Counted from the stretch's first letter, positions 8,969 to 61,409 are shown. The stretch is 64,000 nt of DNA from a virus (IMGVR_UViG_3300017917_003143:2095-66094), one strand, 5' to 3'. Numbers and translations are program-made. The notes: a model not told the origin generated them from the letters alone.

Positions 8969-10378
8969 ATGAAAGATTATTCAGTAGAAGTACAGCGACT
9001 ATTTTTAGAAATCATGATGCAAGATGCACAGAGTTTTGTGCGTGTGCAAAATATCTATAATGATGAAAACTTTGATCGCAGTTTGCGTAGTGCGGCCAAG
9101 TTCATCAAAGAGCATGCAGACAAGCACAAGACCCTGCCTGATCGCAAACAAGTGTCAGCGGTGACCAATGTCAAACTTGAAGAAATTCCTGATTTAAATG
9201 ACGGACACCTTGACTGGTTTATGGAAGAGTTTGAAGGCTTTACTCGACGCCAGGAACTGGAACGTGCTATCCTTAAATCAGCAGACTTGCTGGAGAAAGG
9301 TAACTTTGATCCGGTAGAAAAACTGATCAAGGATGCTGTGCAAATTAGTTTGACCAAGGACCTGGGCACAGATTACTTTGATGATCCTAGAGCCCGACTC
9401 ATGGCACTGAAAAACAACAACGGGCAAAACTCCACAGGTTGGCCTGCGCTGGATCGACTGCTGTATGGCGGATTCAATCGCGGCGAACTACAGATCTTTG
9501 CTGGCGGTTCAGGATCAGGCAAGAGCTTGTTCATGCAGAACTTGGCAGTGAACTGGGCGCAGGCAGGACTCAACGGCTGTTACATCACACTGGAACTTTC
9601 AGAAGGTCTGTGTTCAATGCGTATAGACTCTATGATGACCAATACATCAGCCAAGGAGATTTTCAAAGACATTGACACAGTGGAAATGAAAGTCAAGATG
9701 ATGCAGAAGAAGTCAGGCGGCTTGCAGATCAAATACATGCCAGCGCAATCAACAGTGAATGACATCCGTGCATACTTAAAAGAACTACAAGTCAAGACAG
9801 GCAAGAAGGTTGACTTTTTGTGTGTTGACTACTTGGACTTGATCATGCCCGTGAGTGCCAAAGTCAGCCCTAACGACTTGTTTGTTAAAGACAAGTATGT
9901 TTCAGAAGAACTGCGTAACTTGGCCAAAGAACTCAATGTGTTGTTTGTCACAGCGTCACAGTTGAACCGTGCGGCAGTGGAAGAGATTGAGTTTGACCAC
10001 AGTCATATTTCGGGCGGTATTTCTAAGATCAACACAGCAGACAACGTGTTTGGTATCTTTACTTCGAGAGCCATGCGTGAGCGTGGACGCTATCAGATCC
10101 AGCTAATGAAGACTCGTAGTTCGTCAGGCGTTGGACAAAAAGTAGATCTTGAGTTTGACATTGAGAGCTTGCGTATCCGAGACCTTGGAGAAGATCAACA
10201 GCAAAGTTCAGGCTTTGTCAAGAAGCCTAGCATCTACGAATCAATCAAGGCCAAGAGCCAGGTAAATTCTAAAAATGACGAAGCAGTAGATGAAGACACT
10301 GGAGAAGTCGCTAAGATCCCAGCCACGGTAGACAGTTCAAAGTTAAAAGATCTACTCAAACAAGTCAGGCCCAATTAA
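8969..10378 (+). CDS. DnaB-like replicative DNA helicase
   Basis: RecA-fold Walker A GGSGSGKS, Walker B region FLCVDYLDL, DnaB-type arginine-finger region. N-terminal helical domain. Confidence 0.85.
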   Translation: MKDYSVEVQRLFLEIMMQDAQSFVRVQNIYNDENFDRSLRSAAKFIKEHADKHKTLPDRKQVSAVTNVKLEEIPDLNDGHLDWFMEEFEGFTRRQELERAILKSADLLEKGNFDPVEKLIKDAVQISLTKDLGTDYFDDPRARLMALKNNNGQNSTGWPALDRLLYGGFNRGELQIFAGGSGSGKSLFMQNLAVNWAQAGLNGCYITLELSEGLCSMRIDSMMTNTSAKEIFKDIDTVEMKVKMMQKKSGGLQIKYMPAQSTVNDIRAYLKELQVKTGKKVDFLCVDYLDLIMPVSAKVSPNDLFVKDKYVSEELRNLAKELNVLFVTASQLNRAAVEEIEFDHSHISGGISKINTADNVFGIFTSRAMRERGRYQIQLMKTRSSSGVGQKVDLEFDIESLRIRDLGEDQQQSSGFVKKPSIYESIKAKSQVNSKNDEAVDEDTGEVAKIPATVDSSKLKDLLKQVRPN

Positions 10379-11434
10379 CTCACACAGTTCAGGCAGATAG
10401 TGCTTGATGCTGATTCCTTTGAGTTGGTCTTGTCGCTTTATCTGTTTTAAAAATTCTTCAAAGTTAGCTTGATCGGCGTCGGTATGAGTGTCGCCTATGT
10501 AGGTAGCATAGTCCACTGGACTCAGTACTGTTTTGAGGTGTTGTTTGACATGCTGAGGTAAAGCACGTGGTTGTAACCATGCTGGTCGATAGATTGGGTT
10601 GTTAGCGTATTCTATTTTTTGTTCATTGAACCATGCCACACTTTCATTGTGATACAGCACATTGAGATTGCTCAAGGTATAGTTTGCTGAAACCAAGTCG
10701 GTTAATTCTCGGAAAAACTTTAGATTTGATTCGAGCAGATCCCAAGCCAGTGGATATCGCACATATTCAAACACAGATCCTGTGCCATCTATGCTGACGC
10801 AAAAATTAAGATTTTTAAATTTTGACAGTATTTTTTTGTAATCTTCAGACAGTGCTACACTACCATTTGTGACCATGCTGATAAAACATCGTTCATTGCC
10901 TAATTCAAGTAACTTTTCTAAGATCTGGAAATTTTTTCTTTCATACAGCGGCTCTCCACCCAGCAAGGTCAGGGTCACAAGGCTTGAAAAATCTATTTCT
11001 TGATAGACTTTGTCCAGATCAATAAATTGATATTTCTTTATTTCTAATTTGGGGTTTCTTTTGCGATCAAGCTGTGCCCAACTGCTACTCGATCCAGAAT
11101 TACAACTCACACAAGTGGCGTTGCAAGTATAGCTGGTCAGCAGTTTGAGCATGAGTGTTTTTTCCATGCCCTGCGCCGCATCTTGTTTAATAAATTGCAG
11201 ATCTCTATCCCAGTACCAATCCAGCGCAGAATTTTTAAGTTGACGATCACTGGTCAACCCTTGATCTTCAAGATTCCAGCATTTTTGACATTCTGCAGGG
11301 CGTTTTCCAGCTATCATTTCCGCCTGGATCTTTTTTATATCATAGTCTTTGGGTAGCAAACAGCAATGGGTATCGTGGCGATCGTCCCAATTTAATTCAC
11401 GTCCAAACCAGGGTAAAACACAAAAATTGTCCAT
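10352..11434 (-). CDS. radical SAM domain protein (possible SPASM/Cys-rich auxiliary region)
   Basis: CX3CX2C motif (CNATCVSC). Additional Cys-rich N-terminal segment (CCLLP...CQKCW). Confidence 0.7.
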   Translation of the reverse strand: MDNFCVLPWFGRELNWDDRHDTHCCLLPKDYDIKKIQAEMIAGKRPAECQKCWNLEDQGLTSDRQLKNSALDWYWDRDLQFIKQDAAQGMEKTLMLKLLTSYTCNATCVSCNSGSSSSWAQLDRKRNPKLEIKKYQFIDLDKVYQEIDFSSLVTLTLLGGEPLYERKNFQILEKLLELGNERCFISMVTNGSVALSEDYKKILSKFKNLNFCVSIDGTGSVFEYVRYPLAWDLLESNLKFFRELTDLVSANYTLSNLNVLYHNESVAWFNEQKIEYANNPIYRPAWLQPRALPQHVKQHLKTVLSPVDYATYIGDTHTDADQANFEEFLKQIKRQDQLKGISIKHYLPELCELIGPDLFE

Positions 11435-17531: not shown

Positions 17532-17560
17532 TTGACAAAGTCAACAAAAACAATTATAAT
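17532..17560 (+). promoter_or_regulatory. consensus sigma70 promoter TTGACA-17-TATAAT with palindrome GTTGACAAAGTCAAC over the -35
   Basis: Perfect -35 and -10 hexamers with a 17 nt spacer. 15-bp perfect inverted repeat overlaps the -35. RBS AGGAGA precedes iscU. Confidence 0.75.
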
Positions 17561-17578: not shown

Positions 17579-17959
17579 ATGGCTTATTCTGACAAAGTTA
17601 TTGACCACTACGAAAACCCTCGCAACGTAGGGAGTTTTGATAAATCTGATGACAGCGTGGGCACCGGTATGGTGGGAGCACCTGCTTGCGGTGATGTCAT
17701 GAAATTACAAATAAAGGTAAACAACCATGGTATCATTGAGGACGCGAAATTCAAAACCTACGGTTGCGGTAGTGCCATCGCATCGTCCTCTCTTGTTACC
17801 GAGTGGGTTAAAGGCAAAACGCTGGACGAAGCCTCAACTATTAAAAATTCAGCGATTGCTGAAGAACTCGCCTTGCCACCAGTCAAAATACATTGTAGCA
17901 TCCTTGCTGAAGATGCGATCAAAGCGGCCATAGAGGATTATCGTAAAAAACATGGTTGA
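17579..17959 (+). CDS. iscU: Fe-S cluster assembly scaffold IscU
   Basis: GAPACGDVMKLQIKV, YGCGSAIASSSL and LPPVKIHCSILAEDAIKAA signature blocks. 126 aa. Confidence 0.9.
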   Translation: MAYSDKVIDHYENPRNVGSFDKSDDSVGTGMVGAPACGDVMKLQIKVNNHGIIEDAKFKTYGCGSAIASSSLVTEWVKGKTLDEASTIKNSAIAEELALPPVKIHCSILAEDAIKAAIEDYRKKHG

Positions 17960-18866
17960 TTGGACCAATTGCGAGGATTGGTTTCAAGAATGCCAACTCG
18001 ACCCTGACAAACACGAGCTTTGGTTGGGTGACAATCCGCCAAATGCGAAAAAAGGAAAACGTGTGTTCTGGGTCAGCCACGAGACTCGCGGCATGGCCAA
18101 CAAAGACAGATGCAAAGATCAGGACTTGATAATTTTTGATTCTGGTGTCGATGACAGTGGCATAGTGAATCCTTACATGTTACACTGGCATCTTTCTGCT
18201 GATGCCAACGCTGTTTACAAATTCACAGACCGCATAAAATATCAAGACTCCGGGTTGGTGTTTGATGCTTTGCTGGGTACCAGAAGACCGCACCGAGACT
18301 TTGTCTGGCAATGGTTTGAAAATGATACTGAGTTAAAAACCGCAGGATACATCACATATCATCGGGTGGCTGGAAACAAACAGGATTTCCATGTGGACCA
18401 GGATGTAGATCTGTCAGCGTTCAAGCGCAGTTCATCGACTGTAGAATATCAAGGAGAGTCTGTGGGTTACTGTTCTATGATACCCACAGAAATTTACAGC
18501 AAGACTTATGTCAGTCTTGTGGCAGAAACATATAAACCAGTCAATGATTGGTCATTTTTTACTGAAAAGATCAGCAAGCCCATGTTGGCGAGACGACCTT
18601 TTGTAGTGATATCCAATAGACATTATCTACGCAGACTGAGATCCATGGGTTTCAAAACCTTTGATAGCATCATTGACGAAAGTTATGATGAGCTACAAGA
18701 TGACACAGCACGATGGTCTGCGGCAATGACACAATTAAAAAAGATAGTCGAGATGCCCAGAGATCATTTGTTAGAACTATCCTCTGATATATTAGATCAC
18801 AATCGGCAGTTGATGAATCAACCTTGGATGAGGATTTTTAAAAATAAATTAAAGGAGTTGCGATGA
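17952..18866 (+). CDS. hypothetical protein, paralog of 50916..52007 (glycosyltransferase-like?)
   Basis: Shares the C-terminal block RPFVVISNRHYLRRLRSMGFKTFDSIIDESYDE with the other paralog's FILFAPPGSLQYLKDYGFKTFDHCWDESYDHE. Confidence 0.55.
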   Translation: MVDWTNCEDWFQECQLDPDKHELWLGDNPPNAKKGKRVFWVSHETRGMANKDRCKDQDLIIFDSGVDDSGIVNPYMLHWHLSADANAVYKFTDRIKYQDSGLVFDALLGTRRPHRDFVWQWFENDTELKTAGYITYHRVAGNKQDFHVDQDVDLSAFKRSSSTVEYQGESVGYCSMIPTEIYSKTYVSLVAETYKPVNDWSFFTEKISKPMLARRPFVVISNRHYLRRLRSMGFKTFDSIIDESYDELQDDTARWSAAMTQLKKIVEMPRDHLLELSSDILDHNRQLMNQPWMRIFKNKLKELR

Positions 18867-19192
18867 TCAATATAACTGAACAAGCGGCTTGCAAAGTCAA
18901 AGAAAATCTATCACGTAGAGGACACGGCGTGGGCATCAAGATAGGAGTCAAAACCACTGGATGCTCAGGCCTGGCCTATACGTTAGAGTATGTAGATGTC
19001 GAGCAAGGAAAAGAGCACTGCATGGCACACTATGATGTCAATGGTGTGCGCATCTATGTAGATCCCAAACATCGCCCTTATCTTGAAGGCATGACCATGG
19101 ATTGGATACGCCAAGGCCTCAACGAAGGTTTTGATTTTATTAACCCCAATGAAAAAGACCGCTGTGGATGCGGGGAAAGTTTCCGTGTATAA
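18863..19192 (+). CDS. iscA: Fe-S cluster insertion protein IscA/ErpA (HesB family)
   Basis: KIGVKTTGCSGLAY and C-terminal CGCGESF cysteine motifs. 109 aa. Confidence 0.85.
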   Translation: MINITEQAACKVKENLSRRGHGVGIKIGVKTTGCSGLAYTLEYVDVEQGKEHCMAHYDVNGVRIYVDPKHRPYLEGMTMDWIRQGLNEGFDFINPNEKDRCGCGESFRV

Positions 19193-21985: not shown

Positions 21986-24301
21986 ATGACACAGATACAA
22001 ATCACAAAAAGAGACGGACGCCGAGAGCCGCTGGATTTAGAAAAATTACACAAAGTAGTATTTTGGGCCACAGAAGGAATTACTGGGGTTTCAGCAAGTC
22101 AAGTAGAAATAAAATCACACATACAGTTTTACAACGGAATACAAACAGCCGATATCCAAGAAACACTGATCAAGTCAGCGGCTGATCTTATCACAGAAGA
22201 AACACCTAACTATCAATACGTTGCAGGGCGATTGATTTGTTATCATCTGCGTAAACAAGTTTATGGACAATTCCAGCCATGGCACATCCTTGACTTGGTC
22301 AAGAAAAACGTTGCCGCTGGGTTCTATGATTCAGAATTGCTAAAAGCATACAGCGACGACGAGTGGGAACGTATCAACAGTTTCATTCGCCACGATCGCG
22401 ATGAACAATTGACTTATGCGGCCATGGAACAGTTCCGTGGCAAGTATCTTGTACAGAACCGTGTGACAAAAGAAATCTATGAAACACCTCAGATGGCCTA
22501 TGCTTTGATCGCGGCCACGCTGTTCCAGCACTATCCACGAGACAGTCGCATGATGTGGGTGCGTGATTACTATGATGCTATCAGTCAACATCAAGTGAGT
22601 TTGCCTACTCCTGTCATGGCCGGTGTGCGTACACCCATGCGACAGTTTTCGAGCTGTGTGTTGATCGAGACCGGCGATAGTCTTGATAGTATCAACGCAA
22701 CGTCAAGCTCTATCGTAAAGTATGTGAGTCAAAAGGCTGGCATTGGTATCGGTGGCGGACGTATCCGCGCCTTGGGATCACCTATCCGTAACGGTGATGC
22801 GTACCATACCGGTGTTATTCCTTTTTACAAAATGTTTCAGGCGGCTACCCGCTCGTGTAGCCAAGGTGGTGTGCGCAATGGAGCCGCTACTCTTTATTAC
22901 CCTATCTGGCATTACGAAGTCGAAGATCTTTTAGTTCTCAAGAACAACAAAGGCACTGAAGACAATCGTGTGCGTCACATGGACTATGGTGTACAATTCA
23001 ATAAAGTCATGTATGAGCGACTGCTTGGCGGTGGCGACATTACCTTGTTCTCGCCACACGACGTGCCAGAGATGTACGAAGCTTTCTTCACTGATGTAGA
23101 TCGTTTCCGTGAACTGTATGAAACAGCCGAACGAAATACCAAACTCCGTAAGAAGAAGGTCAAGGCCATCGACCTGTTCACCGCATTCATGCAAGAGCGC
23201 AAAGATACCGGTCGTGTGTATCTACAAAACGTTGATCACGCCAACACTCATGGTAGTTTCAAACCGGACTTGGCGCCTGTTAAAATGAGCAACCTCTGCT
23301 GTGAAATCACACTACCTACCAAGCCTCTAGATGACATCCATGATGTCGATGGAGAAATCGCACTCTGCACGTTGAGTGCTATCAACTGGGGTGTGTTCCG
23401 TGATCCTGAGGACATGGAAAAAGCCTGTACCTTGGCAGTGCGTGGACTTGATGCGCTGTTGAGTTATCAAAACTATCCTATTATTGCGGCACAGTTGGCC
23501 ACTGAAGCACGTCGCCCATTGGGTGTTGGCATCATCAACTTTGCTTACTGGTTGGCCAAGAACGACTTGAGTTACAGTGATCCAGCCGCATTACCAGTGG
23601 TAGATCGTTGGGCACAGTACTGGTCATATTACTTGATCAAAGCATCAGCAGACCTTGCACGTGAATTTGGTGCATGCCCCAAGAGCAACGAAACCAAGTA
23701 CGGTGATGGCATCTTGCCTGTGGATACCTACAAGCGTGAAGTTGACGAACTCGTGCCTCATCAAGATGCAGTGGATTGGGCCGGTCTAAGAGAGCAGTTG
23801 AAACAGACTGGTATCCGTAACTCCACACTCATGGCCCTGATGCCAGCTGAGACATCAGCGCAGATTTCAAACTCTACCAATGGTGTTGAACCTCCACGTA
23901 GCTATGTGTCAATCAAACAAAGCAAGGATGGTGTTCTCAAGCAAGTAGTTCCTGAATACCGTAGATTAAAAAACAAATATGAATTGCTATGGGATCAAAA
24001 GAGTCCTGAAGGTTATCTCAAGATCATGGCCATTCTGCAGAAGTATATTGATCAGGGTATATCCGTAAATACCTCATATAACCCACAGTTCTTTGAGGAT
24101 GAGAAGATACCAATGAGCGAGATGCTGAAGCACATGATCATGTTCTACAAGTACGGTGGCAAACAACTCTATTATTTTAATACCTACGATGGTTCGGGCG
24201 AGATAGATGTTGATCGCATGAACAACAAAGAAATAATTATTGAATCAGTAGATACCAGTTTAGCCGCAGATGATGCCGACTGCGACAGTTGCAAAATATA
24301 A
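21986..24301 (+). CDS. nrdA: ribonucleotide reductase class Ia alpha subunit
   Basis: 771 aa. N-terminal ATP-cone (VIKRDGRREPLDLEK). Catalytic NLCCEI and C-terminal Cys pair. Confidence 0.95.
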   Translation: MTQIQITKRDGRREPLDLEKLHKVVFWATEGITGVSASQVEIKSHIQFYNGIQTADIQETLIKSAADLITEETPNYQYVAGRLICYHLRKQVYGQFQPWHILDLVKKNVAAGFYDSELLKAYSDDEWERINSFIRHDRDEQLTYAAMEQFRGKYLVQNRVTKEIYETPQMAYALIAATLFQHYPRDSRMMWVRDYYDAISQHQVSLPTPVMAGVRTPMRQFSSCVLIETGDSLDSINATSSSIVKYVSQKAGIGIGGGRIRALGSPIRNGDAYHTGVIPFYKMFQAATRSCSQGGVRNGAATLYYPIWHYEVEDLLVLKNNKGTEDNRVRHMDYGVQFNKVMYERLLGGGDITLFSPHDVPEMYEAFFTDVDRFRELYETAERNTKLRKKKVKAIDLFTAFMQERKDTGRVYLQNVDHANTHGSFKPDLAPVKMSNLCCEITLPTKPLDDIHDVDGEIALCTLSAINWGVFRDPEDMEKACTLAVRGLDALLSYQNYPIIAAQLATEARRPLGVGIINFAYWLAKNDLSYSDPAALPVVDRWAQYWSYYLIKASADLAREFGACPKSNETKYGDGILPVDTYKREVDELVPHQDAVDWAGLREQLKQTGIRNSTLMALMPAETSAQISNSTNGVEPPRSYVSIKQSKDGVLKQVVPEYRRLKNKYELLWDQKSPEGYLKIMAILQKYIDQGISVNTSYNPQFFEDEKIPMSEMLKHMIMFYKYGGKQLYYFNTYDGSGEIDVDRMNNKEIIIESVDTSLAADDADCDSCKI

Positions 24302-25437
24302 CCGAGAAAAACATGAGCGTATTAAATTTAAACAAGCGTGATCACACCACCAGCTTGGCTTTCCTTGATCCACAAGGTAGCCTGGGCATGCAGAGATACG
24401 ATACACTCAAGTATCGTCAATTTGACAAACTCACCGACAAGCAGTTGGGATTCTTTTGGCGTCCAGAAGAAGTTGATGTACTCCGTGATGCCAAGGACTT
24501 CAAAGATCTCACACCCTTTGAACAGCATATTTTTACAGCCAACCTCAAGCGCCAGATCCTATTGGATTCTGTGCAAGGTCGCTCGCCAAACCTGGCTTTC
24601 TTGCCTATCGTCACACTGCCTGAACTTGAAACTTGGATAGAAACTTGGGCTTTCTCAGAGACCATCCACTCACGTTCATACACTCACATCATCCGTAACG
24701 TGTATTCAGATCCTGGGCGTGTGTTTGAAGAGATGCTCGAAATCGATGACATCATCGCCTGCGGCAACGACATTTCTAAATACTATGACGACTTGATTCG
24801 GTACAGCCAGTGGTATCTGTTGCTGGGTGCTGGCGAGCATGAATGTAATGGCACCAAGTTTGAAGTATCCGAATACGAGCTCAAGAAGAAACTATGGCTG
24901 TGCCTTAACTCTGTCAACGTGTTGGAAGGTATTCGTTTCTATGTGAGCTTTGCTTGCTCATGGGCCTTTGCTGAACTCAAGAAGATGGAAGGCAATGCCA
25001 AGATCATCAAATTGATCGCACGTGACGAAAATGTGCATCTCGGATTCACACAAAGCCTGCTAAAGATTCTACCACAAGACGACCCAGATTTTGCCAAGAT
25101 CCGCAAAGAGACCGAAGCCGAAGTCGTTGCTATGTTTGAGGACGCAGTCAAACAAGAAGAAGCCTGGGCCGATTACTTGTTCAAAGATGGATCTATGATT
25201 GGTCTCAACAAACAATTACTCTGTGACTATGTAGAATGGATTGCCCACAAGCGCATGACTGCACTTGGACTACCAAATCATTATCGTGGTGGTTCTAACC
25301 CATTGCCCTGGACACAAAAATGGATTGCAGGCGGCGATGTTCAAGTGGCCCCACAGGAAACTGAGATAACTAGTTATGTTATCGGCGGCACTAAACAAGA
25401 CGTCGACTCTAATACATTTACAGGAATGAGTTTATAA
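24289..25437 (+). CDS. nrdB: ribonucleotide reductase class Ia beta subunit
   Basis: 382 aa with di-iron ligand helices. Tyrosyl radical region. Adjacent to nrdA. Confidence 0.9.
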   Translation: MQNITEKNMSVLNLNKRDHTTSLAFLDPQGSLGMQRYDTLKYRQFDKLTDKQLGFFWRPEEVDVLRDAKDFKDLTPFEQHIFTANLKRQILLDSVQGRSPNLAFLPIVTLPELETWIETWAFSETIHSRSYTHIIRNVYSDPGRVFEEMLEIDDIIACGNDISKYYDDLIRYSQWYLLLGAGEHECNGTKFEVSEYELKKKLWLCLNSVNVLEGIRFYVSFACSWAFAELKKMEGNAKIIKLIARDENVHLGFTQSLLKILPQDDPDFAKIRKETEAEVVAMFEDAVKQEEAWADYLFKDGSMIGLNKQLLCDYVEWIAHKRMTALGLPNHYRGGSNPLPWTQKWIAGGDVQVAPQETEITSYVIGGTKQDVDSNTFTGMSL

Positions 25438-26649
25438 ATGAAAAAACGGAACTACACACAAGAGGATGTAAAGAAGTTACAAGGTAGTTTAAAGATTGAA
25501 TACACACTGGCAAAACGAGGCGCAACAAAATTGCGTGAATTGCTAGCCACAGAACCATTTGTTCCTACACTAGGAGCATACAATGGACAGCAGGCAGTAC
25601 AACATGCCAAAGCTGGACTTAAAGCAATCTATCTATCAGGTTGGCAAGTGGCCGCTGCCGCAAATACCAGTGGTCGTGTTTATCCAGACCAATCACTATA
25701 CCCAGTTGACTCAGTGCCTAGTGTTGTTAAAGAAATCAACAACGCACTTCGCCGTGCTGATCAAATCCAAACACTAGAAGGAGTCGGTACAACAGACTAC
25801 TACTTGCCTATCATCGCAGACTGTGAAGCAGGCTTTGGTGGAGCACTAAACGCATACGAACTAACACTGAGCTGTATCGAAGCAGGTGCGGCCGCTGTTC
25901 ACTTTGAAGATCAATTGAGTTCAGAAAAGAAATGCGGACACCTGGGTGGTAAAGTATTGATTCCAACCAAACAGGCTATTCGTAACTTAAATGCCGCACG
26001 ACTGGCCGCTGATGTTGCAGAAGTAGACACAGTTATTCTTGCTCGCACAGACGCAGAGTCAGGCACATTGATTACCAGTGACATTGATCCTGTGGATCAA
26101 CCATTTGTTGACTACACAAAAGAACGTACTGAAGAAGGCTTCTATCACTTTAAGAATGGTCTAGGTGCTTGTATTGCTCGTGGTCTTGCTTATGCTGAAT
26201 ACGCAGACTTGTTATGGTTTGAAACATCAACTCCTGACCTGGCACAAGCTCAAGCATTCGCTGATGCTATCCATGAAAAGTTTCCAAATCAACAGTTGGC
26301 CTACAACTGCTCACCTAGCTTCAACTGGCGCAAGTATTTGACAGAAGAACAATGTGAGAGCTTCCAAGCAGAGATTGGTCGGATGGGCTATGCTTATCAG
26401 TTCATTACACTTGCTGGCTTCCACTGCAACAACTTGGCTACTTTTGAAATGGCAGAAGCCTATCAAAAGACAGGCATGCGTGGCTATTCAGAAATGCAAC
26501 AACGTGAGTTCGCCGCACAAGAGCGTGGCTTTACCACAGTTAAGCATCAGCGTGAAGCAGGCGTTCCATACTTTGATGCTATCGCTACAGCAGTTGGCGC
26601 AACATCAACAACAGCATTGGCACACTCAACAGAAGCGGATCAGTTTTAA
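25438..26649 (+). CDS. aceA: isocitrate lyase
   Basis: ICL signature KKCGHLGGK within a 403 aa ICL/PEP-mutase-fold protein. N-terminus typical of ICL. Confidence 0.8.
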
Positions 26650-26658
26650 GGAAAATAT

Positions 26659-26928
26659 ATGTTAACCGTTTATTCAAAAAAACATTGCCCATTTTGTGAT
26701 CAAGCCAAGGCCCTGTTAAAAAATAAAAACATTGCTTTTGAAGAAGTTAAAATCGATGAAGATAACACAGCACGTGAGTTTATCATGGAGCAAGGGCACC
26801 GTACAGTTCCACAGATCTATCACAACGGCAAATTATTTGTAGAAGGTGGTTTCCAAGGTTTAAGTAAGCTGAGCACAGACGAAATACGCACTCGTTTGGG
26901 CCTTACTGAAAATCTAGGAACCTTATGA
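26659..26928 (+). CDS. glutaredoxin/NrdH-like redoxin
   Basis: CPFC active site at the N-terminus. 89 aa. Located with nrdAB. Confidence 0.85.
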   Translation: MLTVYSKKHCPFCDQAKALLKNKNIAFEEVKIDEDNTAREFIMEQGHRTVPQIYHNGKLFVEGGFQGLSKLSTDEIRTRLGLTENLGTL

Positions 26929-29733: not shown

Positions 29734-29761
29734 AAAACCCTGCTATCAACAGGGTTTTTTT
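29734..29761 (+). terminator. rho-independent terminator
   Basis: AAAACCCTG-ctatcaa-CAGGGTTTT plus T run. Stem sequence related to the 14725 terminator. Confidence 0.85.
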
Positions 29762-29766
29762 GTGGT

Positions 29767-29795
29767 TGACCAGAAATAGCCATTTCGTTATAATA
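29767..29795 (+). promoter_or_regulatory. sigma70-like promoter TTGACC-17-TATAAT with extended TATAATAATAGAAT
   Basis: -35 TTGACC at 29767-29772 and -10 TATAAT at 29790-29795. Same 14-mer as the promoter at 51-64. Confidence 0.7.
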
Positions 29796-31474: not shown

Positions 31475-31647
31475 TCAGAATGCTGGGTGTTTGGGTTTTA
31501 GTCAGCGTGGTAATCGGTATCCTTATTGTGGCTTTTAGAGAAGCTACTAAAAAGGAAAGATGGGAGTTGACAAAAACTGTGGTCTTTGCTACAATGTGTG
31601 GACTCATTGCCTCAATCCTGTTGGGGTTTATTGTAATACTCTTTTAA
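31471..31647 (+). CDS. small two-TM membrane protein
   Basis: ATGA overlap with the ligase stop. Two hydrophobic helices. 58 aa. Confidence 0.4.
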   Translation: MIRMLGVWVLVSVVIGILIVAFREATKKERWELTKTVVFATMCGLIASILLGFIVILF

Positions 31648-31655
31648 GGAATCTC

Positions 31656-32453
31656 ATGAAACGATCTTTTGCTACTCTTAGCCTCGTTGCCGCCGCAGTT
31701 CTTGCCACCGGTTGTACTCGCATTGAAACCGGTGAGGTTGGTGTGCGTGTTGGGTTTGATAAACAGGTCAAACCAGGTGAACTGCTACCTGGTTCCTTCA
31801 ACCAAGTCATTATCGGTGATGTTCTTACATTCCCTGTCAAGGACGTCAACGTCAAGTTGGACGATATGACTCCTGTTGCTAAAGACAACTCGACTATGAA
31901 GGACCTTGATGCTGTGGTCATTTACAACATCAACCAAGCACAGGTCGCCGAACTGTATAGCCAGAAGAGTCAAGCCTTCCACGCCAAACACAATGGTGAT
32001 ATCTACTTGATGTACAACTACATTGTGCAAACTGCTCGCAACGCTATCTACAAAGAAGCTCGCAAGTATGAAGCTCTGGACATGGCAGACAATCGACAGT
32101 CTATGGAACAGGCTATCAAAGAGCAGATCCAAAAGAGTCTTGCCGAAGAAAAACTCGATGGCAGTTTGGTTGTAAGCCAGGTCTTGATCCGCAACATCGT
32201 ACCTGCTGATAGTGTGGTTGAAAGCGCCAACGCTCTTGTTCGTGCTAAGAACGAATACAAGCAAAAGGAAGTTGAAGTGGCCACTGCCAAGAAAGAAGCA
32301 GAGCGTATGGCCGCCCTGGCTAACAACTCTGCCAGTTCTATCGCGTTCATGAACGCACAGGCCGCACTGAATATCAGTGAAGGTATCAAGAATGGCAAGG
32401 TACAGACCATTGTTGTTCCCAGCAACATGACTGGCTTGATGATTGGCAAGTAA
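31656..32453 (+). CDS. lipoprotein, possibly SPFH/band-7-like
   Basis: Lipobox LATGC after the signal peptide. RBS AAGGA. Ala/Glu-rich C-terminal helices. Confidence 0.5.
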   Translation: MKRSFATLSLVAAAVLATGCTRIETGEVGVRVGFDKQVKPGELLPGSFNQVIIGDVLTFPVKDVNVKLDDMTPVAKDNSTMKDLDAVVIYNINQAQVAELYSQKSQAFHAKHNGDIYLMYNYIVQTARNAIYKEARKYEALDMADNRQSMEQAIKEQIQKSLAEEKLDGSLVVSQVLIRNIVPADSVVESANALVRAKNEYKQKEVEVATAKKEAERMAALANNSASSIAFMNAQAALNISEGIKNGKVQTIVVPSNMTGLMIGK

Positions 32454-35601: not shown

Positions 35602-36801
35602 ATGAATGAATCGTCTCAATATGAAAATTGCAGTTTTTGTAACAAACACAAAGACGAAGTAAAGAAACTGATAGTTGGCAATGGTGTAGCTATATGCAAT
35701 GAATGTGTCGACCTTTGCCAGAGTTTATTGGATGAAGACATCAAGGAAAGACCCAAGGATCTCACTGACATAGATCCACAAGAACTTAAATCCTATCTTG
35801 ATCAATATGTGATAGGTCAGGATCGCGCAAAGATGGTACTGAGCGTGGCCATCTCCAATCATTACAAGCGAATCCAACATCGCGATTCTGATGTAGAAAT
35901 TGACAAAGCCAACATCCTCATGCTTGGACCCACTGGGTCGGGCAAAACCTTGTTGGCCAAAACTGTGGCACGGTATCTCGACGTGCCGTTTGCCATAGCA
36001 GATGCCACATCTGTGACCGAAGCCGGATATGTAGGCGATGATGTAGAAAGCCTGATCCAGCGCCTGCTTACTGCCGCTGGTGGCGATGTAGAAAAATGCC
36101 AACGTGGTATCATATTTGTCGACGAGATCGACAAGATCGCTCGCAAGAGTGAGTCAGCATCAATCACAAGAGATGTTTCGGGAGAAGGTGTACAACAGGC
36201 CTTGCTTAAAATGGTCGAGGGCACTGTTTGTCGCATACCAGCCGCAGGTGGCCGCAAGCATCCAGGCGGTGAAATGCTTGAAGTTGATACCCGTAACATA
36301 CTGTTTATCGCAGGCGGTGCGTTTGTTGGTCTAGACCAGATAGTTAAAAAACGCATGTACGGTACCAGCATGGGCTTTGGTGCCACAGTGAGCCAACCCA
36401 AAGAAATCAGTCTTGAGCACGTGGTACCCGACGACCTTGTGAAGTTTGGATTGATTCCTGAATTCGTGGGTCGATTCCCTAGCTGGGTCAATCTGGATGA
36501 ACTCACCACAGAAGATCTTATCCATGTGCTCACAGATACTAAAAACTCATTGGTCAAGCAATATCAGCACCTTTTTGCCGCAGACAAAGTCGACCTTGAT
36601 TTTGAGCATGAAGCTCTAGAAACTATCGCGAAGAGATCAGCAGATTTTGGAACCGGTGCCCGTGCTCTGCACAGCGAACTTGAGCGTGTGTTGATGCCAC
36701 ACATGTTCAATATCAAACGCTACCGAGACCGTGGAATAAACCGCGTAGTTATTAACAAAGAACAAATAAATAATCCTACACCCGTTTACAAGGAGGAATA
36801 G
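35602..36801 (+). CDS. clpX: ATP-dependent protease ATPase subunit ClpX
   Basis: N-terminal C4 zinc-binding domain (CSFCNK...CNEC). Walker A GPTGSGKTLLAKT, Walker B IFVDEIDKI, sensor and IGF-loop region. Confidence 0.95.
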   Translation: MNESSQYENCSFCNKHKDEVKKLIVGNGVAICNECVDLCQSLLDEDIKERPKDLTDIDPQELKSYLDQYVIGQDRAKMVLSVAISNHYKRIQHRDSDVEIDKANILMLGPTGSGKTLLAKTVARYLDVPFAIADATSVTEAGYVGDDVESLIQRLLTAAGGDVEKCQRGIIFVDEIDKIARKSESASITRDVSGEGVQQALLKMVEGTVCRIPAAGGRKHPGGEMLEVDTRNILFIAGGAFVGLDQIVKKRMYGTSMGFGATVSQPKEISLEHVVPDDLVKFGLIPEFVGRFPSWVNLDELTTEDLIHVLTDTKNSLVKQYQHLFAADKVDLDFEHEALETIAKRSADFGTGARALHSELERVLMPHMFNIKRYRDRGINRVVINKEQINNPTPVYKEE

Positions 36802-40017: not shown

Positions 40018-40464
40018 ATGAACAAATGGCTGGTCGCCATAATAACAAATCTGATAATGACCAGCATCGCAGTAAGTGGTGAGCTGGTACATCAATTCAA
40101 TAGCCCGTCCTTTAGTGGTCAAGGCTACAGTTCTCACGTCTTGACAATAGAACAATTAGAAGCCACGAGAAAAAAGGCCATAGCCGATGCACAACGAGCG
40201 GCACAAGACAAAGCCGAACGCGATGCAAAAAATACCAACTTGGCCAAGTTCTTGGTCAACGTTGAAAGTCGTATCTACGCACAGCTTTCCAAACAGTTAG
40301 CAGATGCTATGTTTACCGAAAGTGGTGCGTCATCGGGTGCCATGGATTTCCAAGGTACCAATATCAGTTGGGTCAAGACAGGTACAGATGTCACGCTGAC
40401 CATTATGGAATCCAACGGTAATCGCACAGAGATTACAGTACCTATAGCGAGCTTCAGTTTCTGA
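40018..40464 (+). CDS. csgF: curli assembly protein CsgF-like
   Basis: Signal peptide. Mature N-terminus HQFNSPSFSGQG matches the CsgF QFRNPNFGG motif. Adjacent to csgG. RBS AGGAG. Confidence 0.7.
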   Translation: MNKWLVAIITNLIMTSIAVSGELVHQFNSPSFSGQGYSSHVLTIEQLEATRKKAIADAQRAAQDKAERDAKNTNLAKFLVNVESRIYAQLSKQLADAMFTESGASSGAMDFQGTNISWVKTGTDVTLTIMESNGNRTEITVPIASFSF

Positions 40465-41591
40465 TGAAAAAACTACTCATGATCATGCTCGCTACCGCTC
40501 TCTCAGGTTGTGCCAGTTTTCAAATGGATCTGCTCAAAGAAGAACCAGTGGCCGTGGCGCCAAGGCAAGATCTCATTGCCAAGCTACCTGACCTAGATGG
40601 TCCTCCTATAACCATCGCTGTATACGGATTCCGCGACCTTACAGGACAAAACAAAGCCAACGATAAACTGGCCTTGTTTTCCAAGGCTGTCACCCAAGGC
40701 GCAGAAACATTCCTAATCAAGAGCTTACAGGACAGTAAAAATTGGTTCCGTGTTGTAGAGCGTGTGGGTTTAGATAATCTCATCAAAGAACGACAGCTCA
40801 TACGCAACCAGCGTGAAGTTTATGAAGGAAAAGAAGCCAGGCCTCTCAAGCCACTCACTGTGGCCGGTGTGATGATCGAAGGCGGTATCATCGGGTATGA
40901 TTCAAACATACGCTCAGGTGGTAACGGTGCTCGTTGGTTGGGCATAGGAGCTAGCCAGCAATACAGAGTAGATGAAGTCATAATCAGTTTGAGATTGGTC
41001 AGTATCAACTCGGGCGAAGTTCTAATGTCAACCGCTGTGAGCAAGACCATATATTCCACTGCCCATAATGTGGGAGTGTTCAAGTTCTTTGATCAAGGTA
41101 CCAGGAGCCTTGAGTTAGAGAATGGTGCGGCCTTGAATGAGCCCACCACTTATGCTGTGAGAGTGGCCATTGAGCAAGGTGTTTATGAAATGATCATGGC
41201 CGGAGAGAAGAAGGGACTATGGAGATTCCGTACTGAAAAGCCCGCAGTTTCGATAGCCCCTCCTGCTGTCATTGAGGAGAAAAAAGATGATGTCAAACCT
41301 GTTGCAACAGTTGTTGCGCCCGAAGGCACAGAAAAAACAAGAACGGTCGAAGTTGCACCCGCCGCGGTCGCATCAACTAATGTACGAGTACCTAAAACAC
41401 AAACACGACGAGCTACCGTCGTTGAGTGGAGCAACATTAGAAAAAGCCAAGACATCCAAAGCGAAAAAATAACAAATCTTCGCCCAGGAGTCGAGGTCGA
41501 AATTCTAACAGAAGAAAAAAACTTTTATAACGTCCGGGCGGACGGGAAAGAGGGGTGGGTAGCAAAGCGGTTTATTAAGGCACACCAATAA
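40464..41591 (+). CDS. csgG: curli secretion channel lipoprotein CsgG-like with C-terminal SH3b-like domain
   Basis: Lipobox LSGC. VMIEGGIIGYDSNIRSGGNGARWLGIGASQQYRVDEVIISLRLVSINSGEVL closely matches the E. coli CsgG core. Extra C-terminal SH3-like domain. Confidence 0.95.
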   Translation: MKKLLMIMLATALSGCASFQMDLLKEEPVAVAPRQDLIAKLPDLDGPPITIAVYGFRDLTGQNKANDKLALFSKAVTQGAETFLIKSLQDSKNWFRVVERVGLDNLIKERQLIRNQREVYEGKEARPLKPLTVAGVMIEGGIIGYDSNIRSGGNGARWLGIGASQQYRVDEVIISLRLVSINSGEVLMSTAVSKTIYSTAHNVGVFKFFDQGTRSLELENGAALNEPTTYAVRVAIEQGVYEMIMAGEKKGLWRFRTEKPAVSIAPPAVIEEKKDDVKPVATVVAPEGTEKTRTVEVAPAAVASTNVRVPKTQTRRATVVEWSNIRKSQDIQSEKITNLRPGVEVEILTEEKNFYNVRADGKEGWVAKRFIKAHQ

Positions 41592-41617
41592 AAATTATAA
41601 AGTGCCAGAGGAAAAAA

Positions 41618-42256
41618 ATGAAAATGAAATCAAGTATGACAGGCGCTAGTAAGTTGTCGAGTAAATTACTTACCAACTTCATGTTCATAGCCATGATCAG
41701 CAGTACCACCATGGCGGTGGCCAACGAAGTTTACATAGAGCAGGTAGGAGATAATTCTACCATTGCCATCACACAGGATGGTAGCAGTAATCGTATAGGC
41801 ACAGCATTGAATCCAGCTTATATCGGTTCAGGATCCAACACAGTGACCATAGATCAGATCGGCGGAAGCAACGAATTAGACATGATCGTCAATGGATCAG
41901 CCACAAATGTCACAGTCAGTGTGACAGGTAGCAACAACATACAAACCATTGATTGTGGAACCACTGTGTCTGCTGGATGTAGTGGCAGCTCTATCACGCA
42001 GAACATCACAGGCGATAACAACACGCTGGTCGCCAATCTTGGTGGTGGTGCTAATCATACCAGCACTATGAATGTCACTGGTGATTACAACTCTGTGACA
42101 CATACCAGCACCAATACAGGAACAACATCAGCAAATATCACTGTGAGTGGAAATACCAACACTATAGGAGTCACACAAAGTGGCACGACGGCTAAGAGCG
42201 TTACTGTTAATAGCACTGGCAATCTTAACAATATTACTATCAATCAGACCAACTGA
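41618..42256 (+). CDS. curlin-repeat (CsgA/CsgB-like) secreted amyloid subunit candidate
   Basis: Signal peptide. About 6 imperfect ~20-aa repeats of the form Q-x-G-x-x-N-x...-V/I-x-Q-x-G. Confidence 0.6.
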   Translation: MKMKSSMTGASKLSSKLLTNFMFIAMISSTTMAVANEVYIEQVGDNSTIAITQDGSSNRIGTALNPAYIGSGSNTVTIDQIGGSNELDMIVNGSATNVTVSVTGSNNIQTIDCGTTVSAGCSGSSITQNITGDNNTLVANLGGGANHTSTMNVTGDYNSVTHTSTNTGTTSANITVSGNTNTIGVTQSGTTAKSVTVNSTGNLNNITINQTN

Positions 42257-43280
42257 GGCAGCAGTAGGGCGAGTTTCTGAACAAACTGGCCCTACTGAAA
42301 TAGTTAGAAATCAAAAATCATTGCCCAGCCGGGTTAATACCGCTGTTGAAAGCAATGACACCATAATTACTGCTCGGGCAAGGGCACAGTTGACCTTTGA
42401 CGACAATACCACAGTTAAAATAACTGAACAGAGTAAATTGGTCATTGATGATTTTGTGTATGATCCTCGAAAAGGATCAGGCAAGTTAGCACTCAAAATG
42501 GCGCTGGGCACTGCTAGATATGCATCAGGACAGATAGCCAAAAACAATCCACAACAGGTAGCAGTGAAAACACCCACAGCAAGTATCGCAGTTCGTGGTA
42601 CAGACTTTTCCATGACTGTGGATGAGTTAGGTCGTAGTCTTGTGATGTTGTTGCCTAGCTGTGACAACCGAGGCTGTGTCACGGGTGCTATAGAAGTATC
42701 TAACGAAGCAGGTACTGTGTTATTGGAACAAGCATATCAAGCTACCTTGGTCCGGAGTATATCAACACCACCTACTGCTCCTGTGATCGTTTCTATAGAT
42801 CAAGCCAATATCAATAACTTGTTGATTGTTGCTCCACCGCCACAAATCAAACAAGAAGAAATACAACAGGAAACCAAAACAGCTCTGGACATAAATTTCC
42901 TAAACAAAGACTTCTTAAAATACAATGCTTTAGATGAAGACGAGCTTAAAAAATTCAGCGCATTAGACCAAAATTTTCTTGACGGAGAGTTCCTGGTCAA
43001 TATGTTAGACATCAGCAACGCACAGCTGGCCATGAGCCAAGAACAGTTTGCCATGCAGAATCAGATGTTGCCAGGGTACAATGCAGCCACTGAATTAAAA
43101 TATTACATCGATGCTGATGATGACAGCAAGTTAGTGTTAGATAGATCTGTAGGGCACATCGCTAGAGTCATTGTGAATAGAGAACACAATATGATTCTCA
43201 ATATCACACAAGATGGTGTGGCCATCACACAACCGGTAAACCGTAGCGGTTCTACCACAATTACCATCGTACAAAAATAA
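42180..43280 (+). CDS. FecR-domain secreted protein
   Basis: GTG start gives a textbook signal peptide (RRLRALLLIALAILTILLS...TEA-AVG) overlapping the previous gene's 3' end. FecR-like block ASIAVRGTDFSMTV. Confidence 0.45.
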   Translation: MARRLRALLLIALAILTILLSIRPTEAAVGRVSEQTGPTEIVRNQKSLPSRVNTAVESNDTIITARARAQLTFDDNTTVKITEQSKLVIDDFVYDPRKGSGKLALKMALGTARYASGQIAKNNPQQVAVKTPTASIAVRGTDFSMTVDELGRSLVMLLPSCDNRGCVTGAIEVSNEAGTVLLEQAYQATLVRSISTPPTAPVIVSIDQANINNLLIVAPPPQIKQEEIQQETKTALDINFLNKDFLKYNALDEDELKKFSALDQNFLDGEFLVNMLDISNAQLAMSQEQFAMQNQMLPGYNAATELKYYIDADDDSKLVLDRSVGHIARVIVNREHNMILNITQDGVAITQPVNRSGSTTITIVQK

Positions 43281-43361
43281 AAGCTCATAGAATTTAATCA
43301 ATTTTTGCTGTAAATATTTCTAGCACTCTGATAATCAGAATAACAAAACGGGAGCTAGACA

Positions 43362-45356: not shown

Positions 45357-45358
45357 TT

Positions 45359-45529
45359 GTTAACGGCCCCAGTTGATTTTCAACCAAAGTCTTTCGTGTA
45401 CATAGTGGACTATAGTCATCACAATGTTGATGGCTATGGCTCCCTGTATACCGGTGAATGCGGCTGTGACTGCTGTTGCTGTGATACGCCATGAGGCAGC
45501 TCTTACGATTGTTCTCTTGTGTGTTTCCA
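45359..45529 (-). CDS. small membrane protein (DUF2061-like), not in ORF track
   Basis: 57 aa METHKRTIVRAASWRITATAVT...HYVHERLW. GGAG RBS 6 nt upstream on the minus strand. Found by reverse-complementing the sequence by hand. Confidence 0.35.
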
Positions 45530-45545
45530 TTTTTACTCCATTAAA

Positions 45546-45575
45546 AAAGCCCCTTACGGGGCTTTGATTATTTCT
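45546..45575. terminator. bidirectional rho-independent terminator
   Basis: AAAGCCCC-ttac-GGGGCTTT hairpin flanked by T runs on both strands. Sits between convergent genes. Confidence 0.65.
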
Positions 45576-46239
45576 TTCTTATTTCTGTTCGATAATACTG
45601 TTTGGCAGTAAGAATCACAGCACCAACGAATGGCAGTATCTTTTCTACAAAATCATGTAGCGGATCATTCCATTTGTCAATAAAAGGTTCGTGTACTATC
45701 ATATTGCCAGCTACGTAATATAAAACAAACGCACCAATATAAATCGTGCTGGGATATTTATCAAGCAGGCGTGAAACCATGGTGCTACCAAACAAGATGA
45801 TAGGTACGCTGACCAGCAAGCCGATAATGATTAGTGTCCAGTTACCACCTGCGGCTCCTGCAATGGCCAAAGCATTGTCTAGACCCATTACAGCATCTGC
45901 CATCACGATAGTGCCCATAGCACCCCAGAAGGTTGCGGCGGCTCGAACATTACTGTGATCGTTATTGTTTTGGGTAAGTTTCCAAGCAATATAGATCAAC
46001 ATGAGTCCACCGACTAGTCTTAGTCCAGGAATCATTAGCAAATAGGTCAGTGCGGCAACACAGGCAAAGCGCACAGCTACAGCACCAAAGGTACCCCAAA
46101 GCATGGCACGTTTGCGTAGGTGTTCTGGTAGTTGCTTAGACGCCATTGCTATGACGAGTGCGTTTTCACCGCCTAAGACAACGTCTATTAAGATAATGGC
46201 CACAAGAGCCCACAAGAATTGAAGCGAGAGTAATTCCAT
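45568..46239 (-). CDS. TerC-family integral membrane protein
   Basis: 223 aa with ~7 TM helices. Conserved TerC blocks (GENALVIAMA; DNALAIAGA). Confidence 0.75.
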   Translation of the reverse strand: MELLSLQFLWALVAIILIDVVLGGENALVIAMASKQLPEHLRKRAMLWGTFGAVAVRFACVAALTYLLMIPGLRLVGGLMLIYIAWKLTQNNNDHSNVRAAATFWGAMGTIVMADAVMGLDNALAIAGAAGGNWTLIIIGLLVSVPIILFGSTMVSRLLDKYPSTIYIGAFVLYYVAGNMIVHEPFIDKWNDPLHDFVEKILPFVGAVILTAKQYYRTEIRKK

Positions 46240-46365
46240 TTTAGTTCCTTTTAAAATTAAAATGGTCTCGTCTCTTTGTTTGTATACCGGGCTGGGCCGT
46301 GTTGACGATATACAAAGCCCGTTATAGGCTGACTACTCCCCGTCAAATATTTAGTTAAATATCTG

Positions 46366-60913: not shown

Positions 60914-61409
60914 GATACCTTATGTGCCTAAATGGAATCTGTGGTGCAAAATATCCCCAGTGATCACAGTGGGTGATGATGTCCTTGATGCTGATCGATT
61001 GGGAGAGTTTGGATCAGACCTACACGGATTTGAAGAGTTCAAGATATCAATACTGTATGACAACCAGGTTCTGTATTCAGGAACGTTTGATCAACACCAG
61101 CCCATAGTTGTTGATGTAGATTTATTAGACGATAAAGAAAATACAGATCATGTACTGTGCATCGGACTTGAGGGCAAGACTGACGATCACAGTTGTTTTC
61201 ATCAGGGCAAAAGCGTTTCATTGGCCGCGAAAATCAACCTAAGCATAGAACAGATGCCCTTGGATCTCCATGTCATGGCAACAGGTATAAAAACCATCGC
61301 AGGCGAAAACGGCGTACAGAATTTTTCTATTAGCACACCTATCTATCGTTGGCTACTGAAAAATCATGAGCATATAACGGCTGATTTATATTCGATATAT
61401 AAAGAATGA
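60885..61409 (+). CDS. hypothetical protein
   Basis: ATG preceded by GAAGGAGAAG within ORF 60834..61409. 174 aa. Confidence 0.45.
   Translation: MWHSLTPKGKIPYVPKWNLWCKISPVITVGDDVLDADRLGEFGSDLHGFEEFKISILYDNQVLYSGTFDQHQPIVVDVDLLDDKENTDHVLCIGLEGKTDDHSCFHQGKSVSLAAKINLSIEQMPLDLHVMATGIKTIAGENGVQNFSISTPIYRWLLKNHEHITADLYSIYKE

Follow-up and report, generated by a model that had tools for sequence, protein, structure and literature searches.

Enzymes of the glyoxylate shunt have been described for viruses before. Nishimura et al. 2017 (PMC5332604) described an aceBA operon on an environmental viral genome of marine origin (179 kb), Hurwitz et al. 2013 (PMC4053976) detected reads of aceA and aceB in viromes from the Pacific, and 98 isocitrate lyase (ICL) genes were reported for 98 huge phages in the preprint on the Huge Phage Genome Collection (bioRxiv 10.1101/2025.02.27.640493). 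According to the same preprint, malate synthase is encoded by huge phages of marine, soil and plant-related habitats alone, none of them from freshwater (bioRxiv 10.1101/2025.02.27.640493). In this study, an ICL gene was analyzed that is located on a 64,000-nucleotide stretch of viral DNA (IMGVR_UViG_3300017917_003143:2095-66094), which is referred to as the window; positions are counted from its first nucleotide. The gene lies between nrdB, encoding the beta subunit of class Ia ribonucleotide reductase (RNR), and a glutaredoxin gene.

Virus-encoded ICL is already known, and because this gene class has been reported for huge phages, the advance made here is incremental. Literature searches retrieved no description of the gene's placement in the nrd cluster, of a shortened virus-specific ICL clade or of its mobility. 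The reading favored in this study, to which a probability of roughly 70% is given as a whole, is that the gene encodes a catalytically competent AceA-type ICL and represents a mobile cassette of a single open reading frame (ORF), and that its adjacency to RNR genes reflects an insertion hotspot which also offers an expression slot. An initial annotation of the locus had described the same arrangement and had proposed that co-expression with RNR rewires the flux through the tricarboxylic acid (TCA) cycle and the glyoxylate shunt during deoxynucleotide synthesis. The observation itself and the identity of the enzyme were confirmed, and the interpretation as operon coupling was weakened.

Organization of the nrd-ICL Gene Cluster

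In the ORF map of the window, nrdA, nrdB, the ICL gene and a gene encoding a glutaredoxin with a CPFC motif (grx) follow each other head to tail on the plus strand. The nrdA gene (21986–24301) encodes a class Ia RNR alpha subunit with an ATP-cone (NF006578, 1190 bits, cut-off 813), in which the Pfam domains ATP-cone, Ribonuc_red_lgN and Ribonuc_red_lgC were recognized, and nrdB (24313–25437) encodes the class Ia beta subunit (NF006576, 513 bits, cut-off 346). The start codon of nrdB is the ATG at 24313; the mechanically predicted ORF opens further upstream at a TTG (24289). The ICL gene (25438–26649) encodes a protein of 403 amino acids that was assigned to the AceA type by the model NF011645 (654.8 bits, cut-off 562). 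It is followed by an 89-amino-acid ORF (26659–26928) matching Pfam Glutaredoxin (71.5 bits, cut-off 22.9) with the CPFC motif at residues 10–13. This protein scores under the NCBIfam equivalog cut-offs and is likely the reductant of the RNR.

At the nrdB/ICL junction, TTTATAA is directly followed by ATGAAAAAACGG, i.e., the stop codon TAA and the start codon ATG adjoin each other with zero spacer. The ICL stop codon is separated from the grx start codon by nine nucleotides, GGAAAATAT. The gene order nrdA-nrdB-ICL-glutaredoxin and the TAAATG junction given in the initial annotation are thus borne out by the ORF map, the junction sequence and the family scans. Based on the stop-start junction, co-expression of ICL with nrdB appears likely. 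Moreover, nrdB and the ICL gene (24313–26649) share one frame with a single TAA between them, and read-through would yield an NrdB-ICL fusion. Programmed read-through was considered and rejected, since in the related locus L004 (loci used for comparison carry the prefix L) stop and start codon overlap by one base (TAATG), placing both ORFs in different frames; the shared frame in the window is therefore probably a coincidence.

Assignment of the Encoded Protein to AceA-Type Isocitrate Lyases

Besides NF011645, the protein also passed the second ICL equivalog model, TIGR01346, with 529.6 bits (cut-off 275.9). It aligns to profile positions 27–428 of 430 and has a complete C-terminus. In a search against the PDB, residues 4 to 403 (the last residue) aligned with bacterial ICLs at approximately 65% identity (E = 7e-160), and methylisocitrate lyases reached only about E-16, confined to the N-terminal half. 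The signature KKCGHLGG corresponds to residues 164–171.

Active-site positions were inspected in an alignment to Mycobacterium tuberculosis ICL1 and Escherichia coli AceA; the lengths and KKCGH positions of both reference sequences agree with the published numbering. In total, 20 of 20 catalytic, Mg2+ and substrate positions were found to be kept. Residues K164-K165-C166-G167-H168 line up with K189–H193 of the M. tuberculosis enzyme and with C195 of E. coli AceA. For M. tuberculosis ICL1, we take the ligand residues to be Y89, S91, G92, W93, D108, D153, E155, H180, E182 and R228, together with E285, N313, S315, S317 and T347. All of these Mg2+, glyoxylate and succinate ligands are kept in the phage ICL, including the succinate-binding residues N290, S292, S294 and T324. 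Furthermore, the ratio of nonsynonymous to synonymous divergence (dN/dS) of the ICL gene ranges from 0.035 to 0.085, the same as for nrdA over identical genome pairs, indicating strong purifying selection.

By every available sequence test, the 403-amino-acid protein is a genuine AceA-type ICL, and it is predicted to be catalytically competent in cleaving isocitrate to succinate and glyoxylate. The designation as isocitrate lyase in the initial annotation accordingly stands on passed equivalog cut-offs and kept active-site residues. The phage protein lacks the first approximately 24 residues of cellular ICLs: it matches residues 24–42 onward of every solved chain, and every solved ICL is at least 23 residues longer at the N-terminus.

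Presence and Absence of the ICL Gene among Related Phages

In order to evaluate the distribution of the ICL gene, the IMG/VR loci with NrdA proteins nearest to that of the window were retrieved (80 loci, NrdA 79–96% identical). Complete nrdA-nrdB-grx clusters were present in 73 of these loci. Only four of them (on the contigs of L005, L006, L007 and L012) contain ICL, which is absent from the other 69, i.e., the gene does not belong to the conserved set of this class Ia RNR cluster in phages. In relatives without ICL, grx is located directly 3' of nrdB. In L168, where the sequence of the empty site is TTTATAATGTTG, the stop codon TAA of nrdB and the start codon ATG of grx overlap, and a nearly identical site was found in L164, whose NrdA is 96% identical to that of the window; the TAA at these sites overlaps the ATG or lies 2 nucleotides from it.

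Compared to ICL-free relatives, the inserted segment spans positions 25438–26658 on the plus strand and comprises 1,221 nucleotides, corresponding to the ICL ORF plus the nine-nucleotide spacer GGAAAATAT. Polymorphism for presence and absence, precise boundaries and otherwise collinear genomes (window versus L164 and L168), as known from moron-like elements, were all observed. The ICL gene of the window is a sporadic accessory cassette of a single ORF. The window on the one hand and L164 and L168 on the other represent near-isogenic variants with and without ICL and thus a natural experiment; such variants, together with the several sites occupied by the gene, are usable to ask how a lone glyoxylate-shunt enzyme is of benefit to a phage in lakes.

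Genomic Contexts and Origin of the ICL Cassette

For the comparison of ICL loci, the best 80 of 181 IMG/VR contigs encoding a relative of the protein were combined with the window, Phage C48C1 and the record LR796233.1, resulting in 83 loci. The ICL gene is located between nrdA and nrdB in 30 loci, after nrdB in 16 and after grx-hyp102 in one; it adjoins a fatty-acid desaturase gene in 24 loci and was found elsewhere in 12. The last group includes the arrangements IscU-ICL-IscA and TerC-ICL, in genomes that share the backbone genes for IscU, IscA and TerC with the window. Two more genomes of 342–347 kb feature the order nrdA-ICL-aldolase II-nrdB-grx. ICLs that are 92–96% identical to that of the window occur in unrelated contexts. 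In LR796233.1 (L162; 369,594 bp), for example, endolysin/spanin-like genes precede the ICL gene (product 96% identical) in a lysis-type module. On the same contig, solute-binding proteins of the TctC family (tricarboxylate) and the DctP family (C4-dicarboxylate TRAP) are encoded 6–10 kb upstream of ICL (L162:1–5342); phage-boosted uptake of organic acids could feed the TCA/glyoxylate node in this case.

Between the ICL gene of the window and those of L008, L003, L011, L002 and L162, synonymous divergence (dS) amounts to approximately 1.0–1.3 at 94–96% amino acid identity, and dS to the closest relative, L005, is 0.97. The NrdA proteins of L008 and L011 are only 46–48% identical to that of the window, and neighboring genes only 40–50%. 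The ICL of these phages is thus about as close to that of the window as the ICL of L005, and ICL relationships follow neither genomic context nor backbone. At the nucleotide level, the similarity shared with distant ICL loci extends over the ORF and stops at its two ends. Neither conserved repeats flanking the cassette nor duplications of a target site, both of which had been considered, were seen.

In a neighbor-joining tree without bootstraps, viral ICLs cluster apart from the sampled bacterial ICLs, and the different genomic contexts are interleaved. The start MKKRNYTQ is common to all but a few viral ICL loci, which suggests a single origin of the shortened form. Bacterial ICLs were searched by a pattern scan covering one genome per GTDB species; among the matches listed, to which these identities apply, the best are alphaproteobacterial (Rhodospirillales, Devosia, Pelagibacterales) with 59–67% identity. 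Repeated recent capture from hosts was rejected, since no bacterial ICL exceeded approximately 66% among these matches. As part of the favored reading, the ICL clade is considered to be virus-specific, to have spread from one related huge phage to another and to have landed at several gene junctions.

The nrd Junctions as a Probable Insertion Hotspot

The nrd junctions of related loci hold homing endonuclease genes and many unrelated cargo genes, encoding HNH/NUMOD3 and GIY-YIG proteins, class II aldolase, IscU/IscA, Fe/Mn superoxide dismutase (SOD) and a YHYH protein. Homing-endonuclease-type ORFs are located between nrdA and ICL or inside an interrupted nrdA, which is split in L068 and L070. 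Among them, an HNH/NUMOD3 endonuclease ORF (L011:5196–5891) and a SegE-like GIY-YIG ORF (L013:5171–5941) were assigned by Pfam. Two further endonuclease-type ORFs (L068:3214–3921 and, on the minus strand, L045:11273–11770) were judged by eye from their translations, and a third (L070:1935–3566) has a Pfam match to DUF7487 only. Likewise, Pfam identified the Fe/Mn-SOD (L036:4359–4910) and the YHYH-domain protein (L008:7289–8374) in nrd clusters, and an S-adenosylhomocysteine hydrolase-like ORF (L069:7848–9134) and a FAD-dependent halogenase-like ORF of 488 amino acids (L059:3041–4507) were recognized from the translation by eye only.

A class II aldolase/adducin-family protein of 218–223 amino acids (Pfam Aldolase_II, 96.9 bits) adjoins ICL or is encoded near it in 17 loci (L005:4543–5205, L012:7212–7877, L361:7295–7960 and 14 others). 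This gene also accompanies ICL in loci without nrd genes, and in L169–L171 it fills the slot between nrdB and grx without ICL. In an NCBIfam scan of the ICL-linked aldolase, no subfamily reached its cut-off.

These findings favor an insertion hotspot combined with a convenient expression context as the better explanation for the adjacency of ICL and RNR genes. A dedicated RNR-ICL coupling is disfavored because of the 69 ICL-free clusters out of 73 and the alternative contexts in which ICL was found.

Putative Transcription Unit and Regulatory Signals

A perfect match to a sigma-70-type promoter (TTGACA-17-TATAAT, 12/12 consensus positions) was found at 17532–17560 on the plus strand; the total of promoter-like sites in the region is no higher than expected from shuffled sequence. 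The match is located in a 59-nucleotide gap upstream of the gene for the Fe-S scaffold IscU (17579–17959, plus strand; TIGR01999, 232 bits, cut-off 192) and is followed by an AGGAG ribosome site and the ATG at 17579. An IscA-type Fe-S carrier is encoded at 18863–19192 on the plus strand (Pfam Fe-S_biosyn, 58.8 bits; TIGR00049, 98 bits, cut-off 58.8). In most related loci, IscU represents a backbone gene 5' of nrdA, with ICL present or absent. The strongest terminator-like hairpin (29734–29758, plus strand; 9-bp stem and T-run) lies 3' of a gene encoding 728 amino acids, and directly after it an 11/12 promoter match follows (29766–29794, plus strand).

Since all genes between the promoter match at 17532 and the hairpin at 29734 are co-oriented and closely packed, the nrd and ICL genes probably belong to a transcription unit of approximately 12 kb extending from IscU to PAAR. 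This putative unit also holds Fe-S, nuclease, pectate-lyase-like, PAAR and uncharacterized genes. The perfect promoter match, the AGGAG site and the hairpin with its adjacent 11/12 promoter suggest transcription units that would be read by the host RNA polymerase. In the window, the ICL ORF has no 5' spacer, and its intergenic flanks contain no promoter- or terminator-like site, so that signals of its own, as expected of a moron-like cassette, were not found; most other ICL loci feature only a short Shine-Dalgarno-like stretch 5' of the gene.

Proposed Function of the Phage-Encoded ICL

Host-type enzymology, viral genes on both sides on many contigs and purifying selection place the ICL gene among auxiliary metabolic genes. 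According to the favored reading, the cassette would have landed exactly between the nrdB stop codon and the grx start codon, and it would probably be transcribed with the long unit from IscU via nrdAB and grx to PAAR and be translationally coupled to nrdB. During infection, the phage ICL would act as an auxiliary metabolic gene product that opens the glyoxylate branch. Carbon would then be diverted around the two decarboxylating steps of the TCA cycle, and the glyoxylate produced would be handed to the malate synthase or another glyoxylate sink of the host. No malate synthase was detected among the window ORFs scanned, which included all those of at least 400 amino acids and cover 64 kb of a genome of approximately 343 kb, and the window contains no aceBAK-type operon encoding malate synthase or AceK together with ICL. 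Because no phage malate synthase was seen, dependence on a host malate synthase or other sink is proposed.

Several points weigh against this reading. The missing N-terminal residues (approximately 24) may have a bearing on tetramer formation, and the physiological role is inferred from sequence. A malate synthase or another glyoxylate-using enzyme may be encoded outside the 64-kb window, just as ICL may be present at other genomic locations in relatives whose nrd cluster lacks it. That 47 of the 83 ICL loci fall into the nrd cluster, where two different slots are used, could be due to selection for co-expression beyond a mere hotspot. Moreover, ICL loci are phylogenetically non-independent, and contig counts do not equal independent events. 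The monophyly of the viral clade and the bacterial ceiling of approximately 66% rest on the matches listed and on the unbootstrapped neighbor-joining tree.

A more far-reaching and tentative idea, regarded as rather unlikely, is that the stand-alone, shortened ICL is a mobile cassette of freshwater huge phages serving as a metabolic valve without malate synthase. If so, the enzyme would provide glyoxylate together with succinate, either for redox/iron relief or for the supply of glycine and C4 compounds without a conventional glyoxylate cycle, and it would often be paired with the class II aldolase-family gene.

Evaluation of Alternative Explanations

A different view of the locus, corresponding to the proposal of the initial annotation, is that ICL is a functional part of the RNR operon, co-regulated with it and redirecting TCA/glyoxylate flux for deoxynucleotide synthesis, e.g., from C4 compounds via aspartate to pyrimidines or from glyoxylate via glycine to purines and one-carbon units. 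The TAAATG junction, which makes translational coupling to nrdB likely, is in line with this proposal, as is the fact that both slots used by the 47 loci within nrd clusters touch nrdB; the placement nrdA-ICL-nrdB was also encountered again in other genomes of 340–346 kb. However, grx follows straight after nrdB in 69 of the 73 closest complete clusters, the slot varies, near-identical ICLs (92–96%) are located in lysis, desaturase, TerC and IscU/IscA contexts, and the nrd junctions also house homing endonucleases and many unrelated genes. Furthermore, the vicinity yielded no gene for an aminotransferase and none related to glycine or one-carbon units. Hence, the part of the initial claim concerning a location inside the nrd cluster with a stop-start junction holds, whereas its extension to a functional RNR-glyoxylate unit is not supported by these data and is regarded as improbable.

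It was also considered whether ICL forms a redox/iron-economy module with glutaredoxin, IscU and IscA (and SOD in relatives) around the iron-dependent class Ia RNR. In such a module, ICL would lower the production of NADH and reactive oxygen species as well as the iron demand, like the bacterial glyoxylate shunt under stress. IscU and IscA belong to the same putative transcription unit as ICL and directly flank it in the nrd-free loci L041, L073 and L077; in addition, the Fe/Mn-SOD gene lies in the nrd cluster of L036, and a NifU-like gene is located 3 kb from ICL in Phage C48C1. For bacteria, two reports connect oxidative stress and limitation of iron with the shunt (PMC6779741, PMC11069385), and the former describes aceA as important independently of glcB (PMC6779741). 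These associations are offset by the location of IscU/IscA 5' of nrdA in most relatives irrespective of ICL and by the low number of loci (9 of 82) with an Isc gene no more than three genes away from ICL. Because IscU and IscA are backbone genes, much of the co-location represents inherited synteny, and the module is considered quite improbable.

Assignment to another activity of the ICL fold (2-methylisocitrate lyase, phosphoenolpyruvate (PEP) mutase or oxaloacetate hydrolase) or to an inactive remnant would be compatible with the partial Pfam PEP_mutase match (59 bits), as the superfamily predicts, and with an N-terminus approximately 24 residues shorter than in every solved ICL. In the comparison with methylisocitrate lyases, the protein nevertheless falls on the ICL side: the PrpB models TIGR02317 (102.9 bits, cut-off 354.4) and NF008455 (82.6 bits, cut-off 353) cover only residues 30–215. 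PrpB is a protein of approximately 295 amino acids without the C-terminal region of ICL. An assignment to PEP mutase or related ICL-fold enzymes is not supported either, the models for carboxyPEP mutase (TIGR02319, 44.8 bits, cut-off 420) and phosphonopyruvate hydrolase (TIGR02321, 20.1 bits, cut-off 374) remaining far below their cut-offs. Given ICL equivalog scores above cut-off, the KKCGH motif, the complete set of ICL active-site positions and strong purifying selection, a different activity appears largely refuted already by the sequence and is very improbable.

Finally, an artifact of assembly or binning that placed bacterial DNA in a viral contig, an explanation suggested by the bacterial nature of most 'phage' database ICL matches (Salmonella, E. 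coli and Acinetobacter records), has hardly any probability in view of the same phage backbone flanking ICL on dozens of independent contigs that stem from various samples, some of them of 330–370 kb, the ORF-precise boundaries and a best bacterial match of only approximately 66% among the matches listed.

Features of the Phage Genome

A protein identical to the ICL of the window is recorded on a 343,632-bp JGI contig, and the source is an uncultured huge aquatic phage of approximately 343 kb, of which the window represents 64 kb. ICL homologs with at least 91% identity are encoded on many contigs of 330–370 kb; among the 120 closest database proteins (at least 91% identity), none originates from a contig above approximately 370 kb. 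The nearest cultured relatives are T4-like aquatic myophages with an identity of only about 27%. Replication functions encoded in the window comprise a helicase, a Toprim primase, DnaB and a ligase, and no tRNAs were found in the window.

Moreover, the window encodes host-like proteins, namely ClpX, CsgG, FecR, a CHASE2-cyclase, TerC, a DesA-type desaturase, UvdE, IscU and IscA. Individual features include a radical-SAM protein (10352–11434, minus strand), an SPFH/Band 7 protein (31560–32453), ClpX with a zinc finger (35602–36801), a UDP-glucose/GDP-mannose dehydrogenase (52010–53245), the UV endonuclease UvdE (56887–57915) and the DesA-family fatty-acid desaturase (61406–62116; 369 bits, just short of the 400-bit cut-off). 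Host-like envelope and signaling genes are clustered at 40464–48432. This cluster consists of genes for a CsgG-like lipoprotein with an SH3 domain (40464–41591), a curlin-repeat protein (41618–42256), a FecR-domain protein (42180–43280), an unannotated 664-amino-acid ORF (43362–45356), TerC (45568–46239, minus strand) and a CHASE2 adenylate/guanylate cyclase (46366–48432). In contigs of other huge phages, homologs of the cyclase, TerC and the desaturase are again encoded in the neighborhood of ICL. The presence of CsgG, FecR and PAAR genes points to a Gram-negative host.

Comparison with Known Systems

A tblastn search against 50,697 deposited phage records revealed one genuine ICL phage, namely Phage C48C1 (OQ984149, Kyanoviridae). 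The statement of the initial annotation that ICL is an uncommon viral gene therefore applies to deposited phage genomes and does not extend to metagenomic huge phages, for which 181 IMG/VR contigs were found. Other matches in the phage collection (H27–H34) look bacterial, comprising Salmonella and Acinetobacter contigs and 'phage' records of 1.8–4.5 kb with 58–60% identity; ICL counts taken from that collection would be inflated by such bacterial records. Phage C48C1 resembles the window in its ICL (61% identical), which falls into the viral clade of the tree, and in a NifU-like gene nearby. In contrast, it is a 156-kb T4-like phage, in which the ICL is labeled a hypothetical protein and has no nrd genes beside it. 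A literature search for this phage yielded nothing relevant.

The protein of LR796233.1, deposited as 'AceA Isocitrate lyase [uncultured Caudovirales phage]' (P0033), is considerably closer with 96% identity, but its gene belongs to another module, being preceded by an endolysin-like gene and located close to genes for TctC/DctP binding proteins. The viruses described previously (PMC5332604, PMC4053976) share with the window a virus-encoded glyoxylate-shunt enzyme that is read as an auxiliary metabolic gene. In those viruses, malate synthase accompanies ICL, whereas the ICL of the window stands alone among nrd genes.

Bacterial AceA proteins (E. coli AceA and M. tuberculosis ICL1; structures 7cmx, 6lrp, 3e5b and 1f61) agree with the phage enzyme over residues 4–403 at approximately 65% identity; the catalytic loop KKCGH, the ligands of Mg2+ and substrate and the C-terminus are shared. 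Unlike these, the phage ICL begins without the first approximately 24 residues, has no aceB or aceK partner in the window and belongs to a separate viral clade.

Concerning the insertion site, the nrd region of phage T4 offers the closest parallel; it carries the free-standing homing endonuclease gene mobE between nrdA and nrdB and an intron in nrdB. Like the T4 nrdA/nrdB region, the loci analyzed here feature endonuclease genes at nrd junctions and an interrupted nrdA (L011, L013, L068, L070), and by analogy this likeness indicates the same kind of recombination hotspot. No endonuclease gene adjoins ICL in the window, in which respect it differs from T4. Gene adjacency in huge phages can mislead, as an enzyme seemingly embedded in a nucleotide-reduction operon turns out to be a sporadic hotspot insert. 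Unlike that of T4, the hotspot of this phage group also gathers metabolic cargo, including ICL, class II aldolase, SOD and others.

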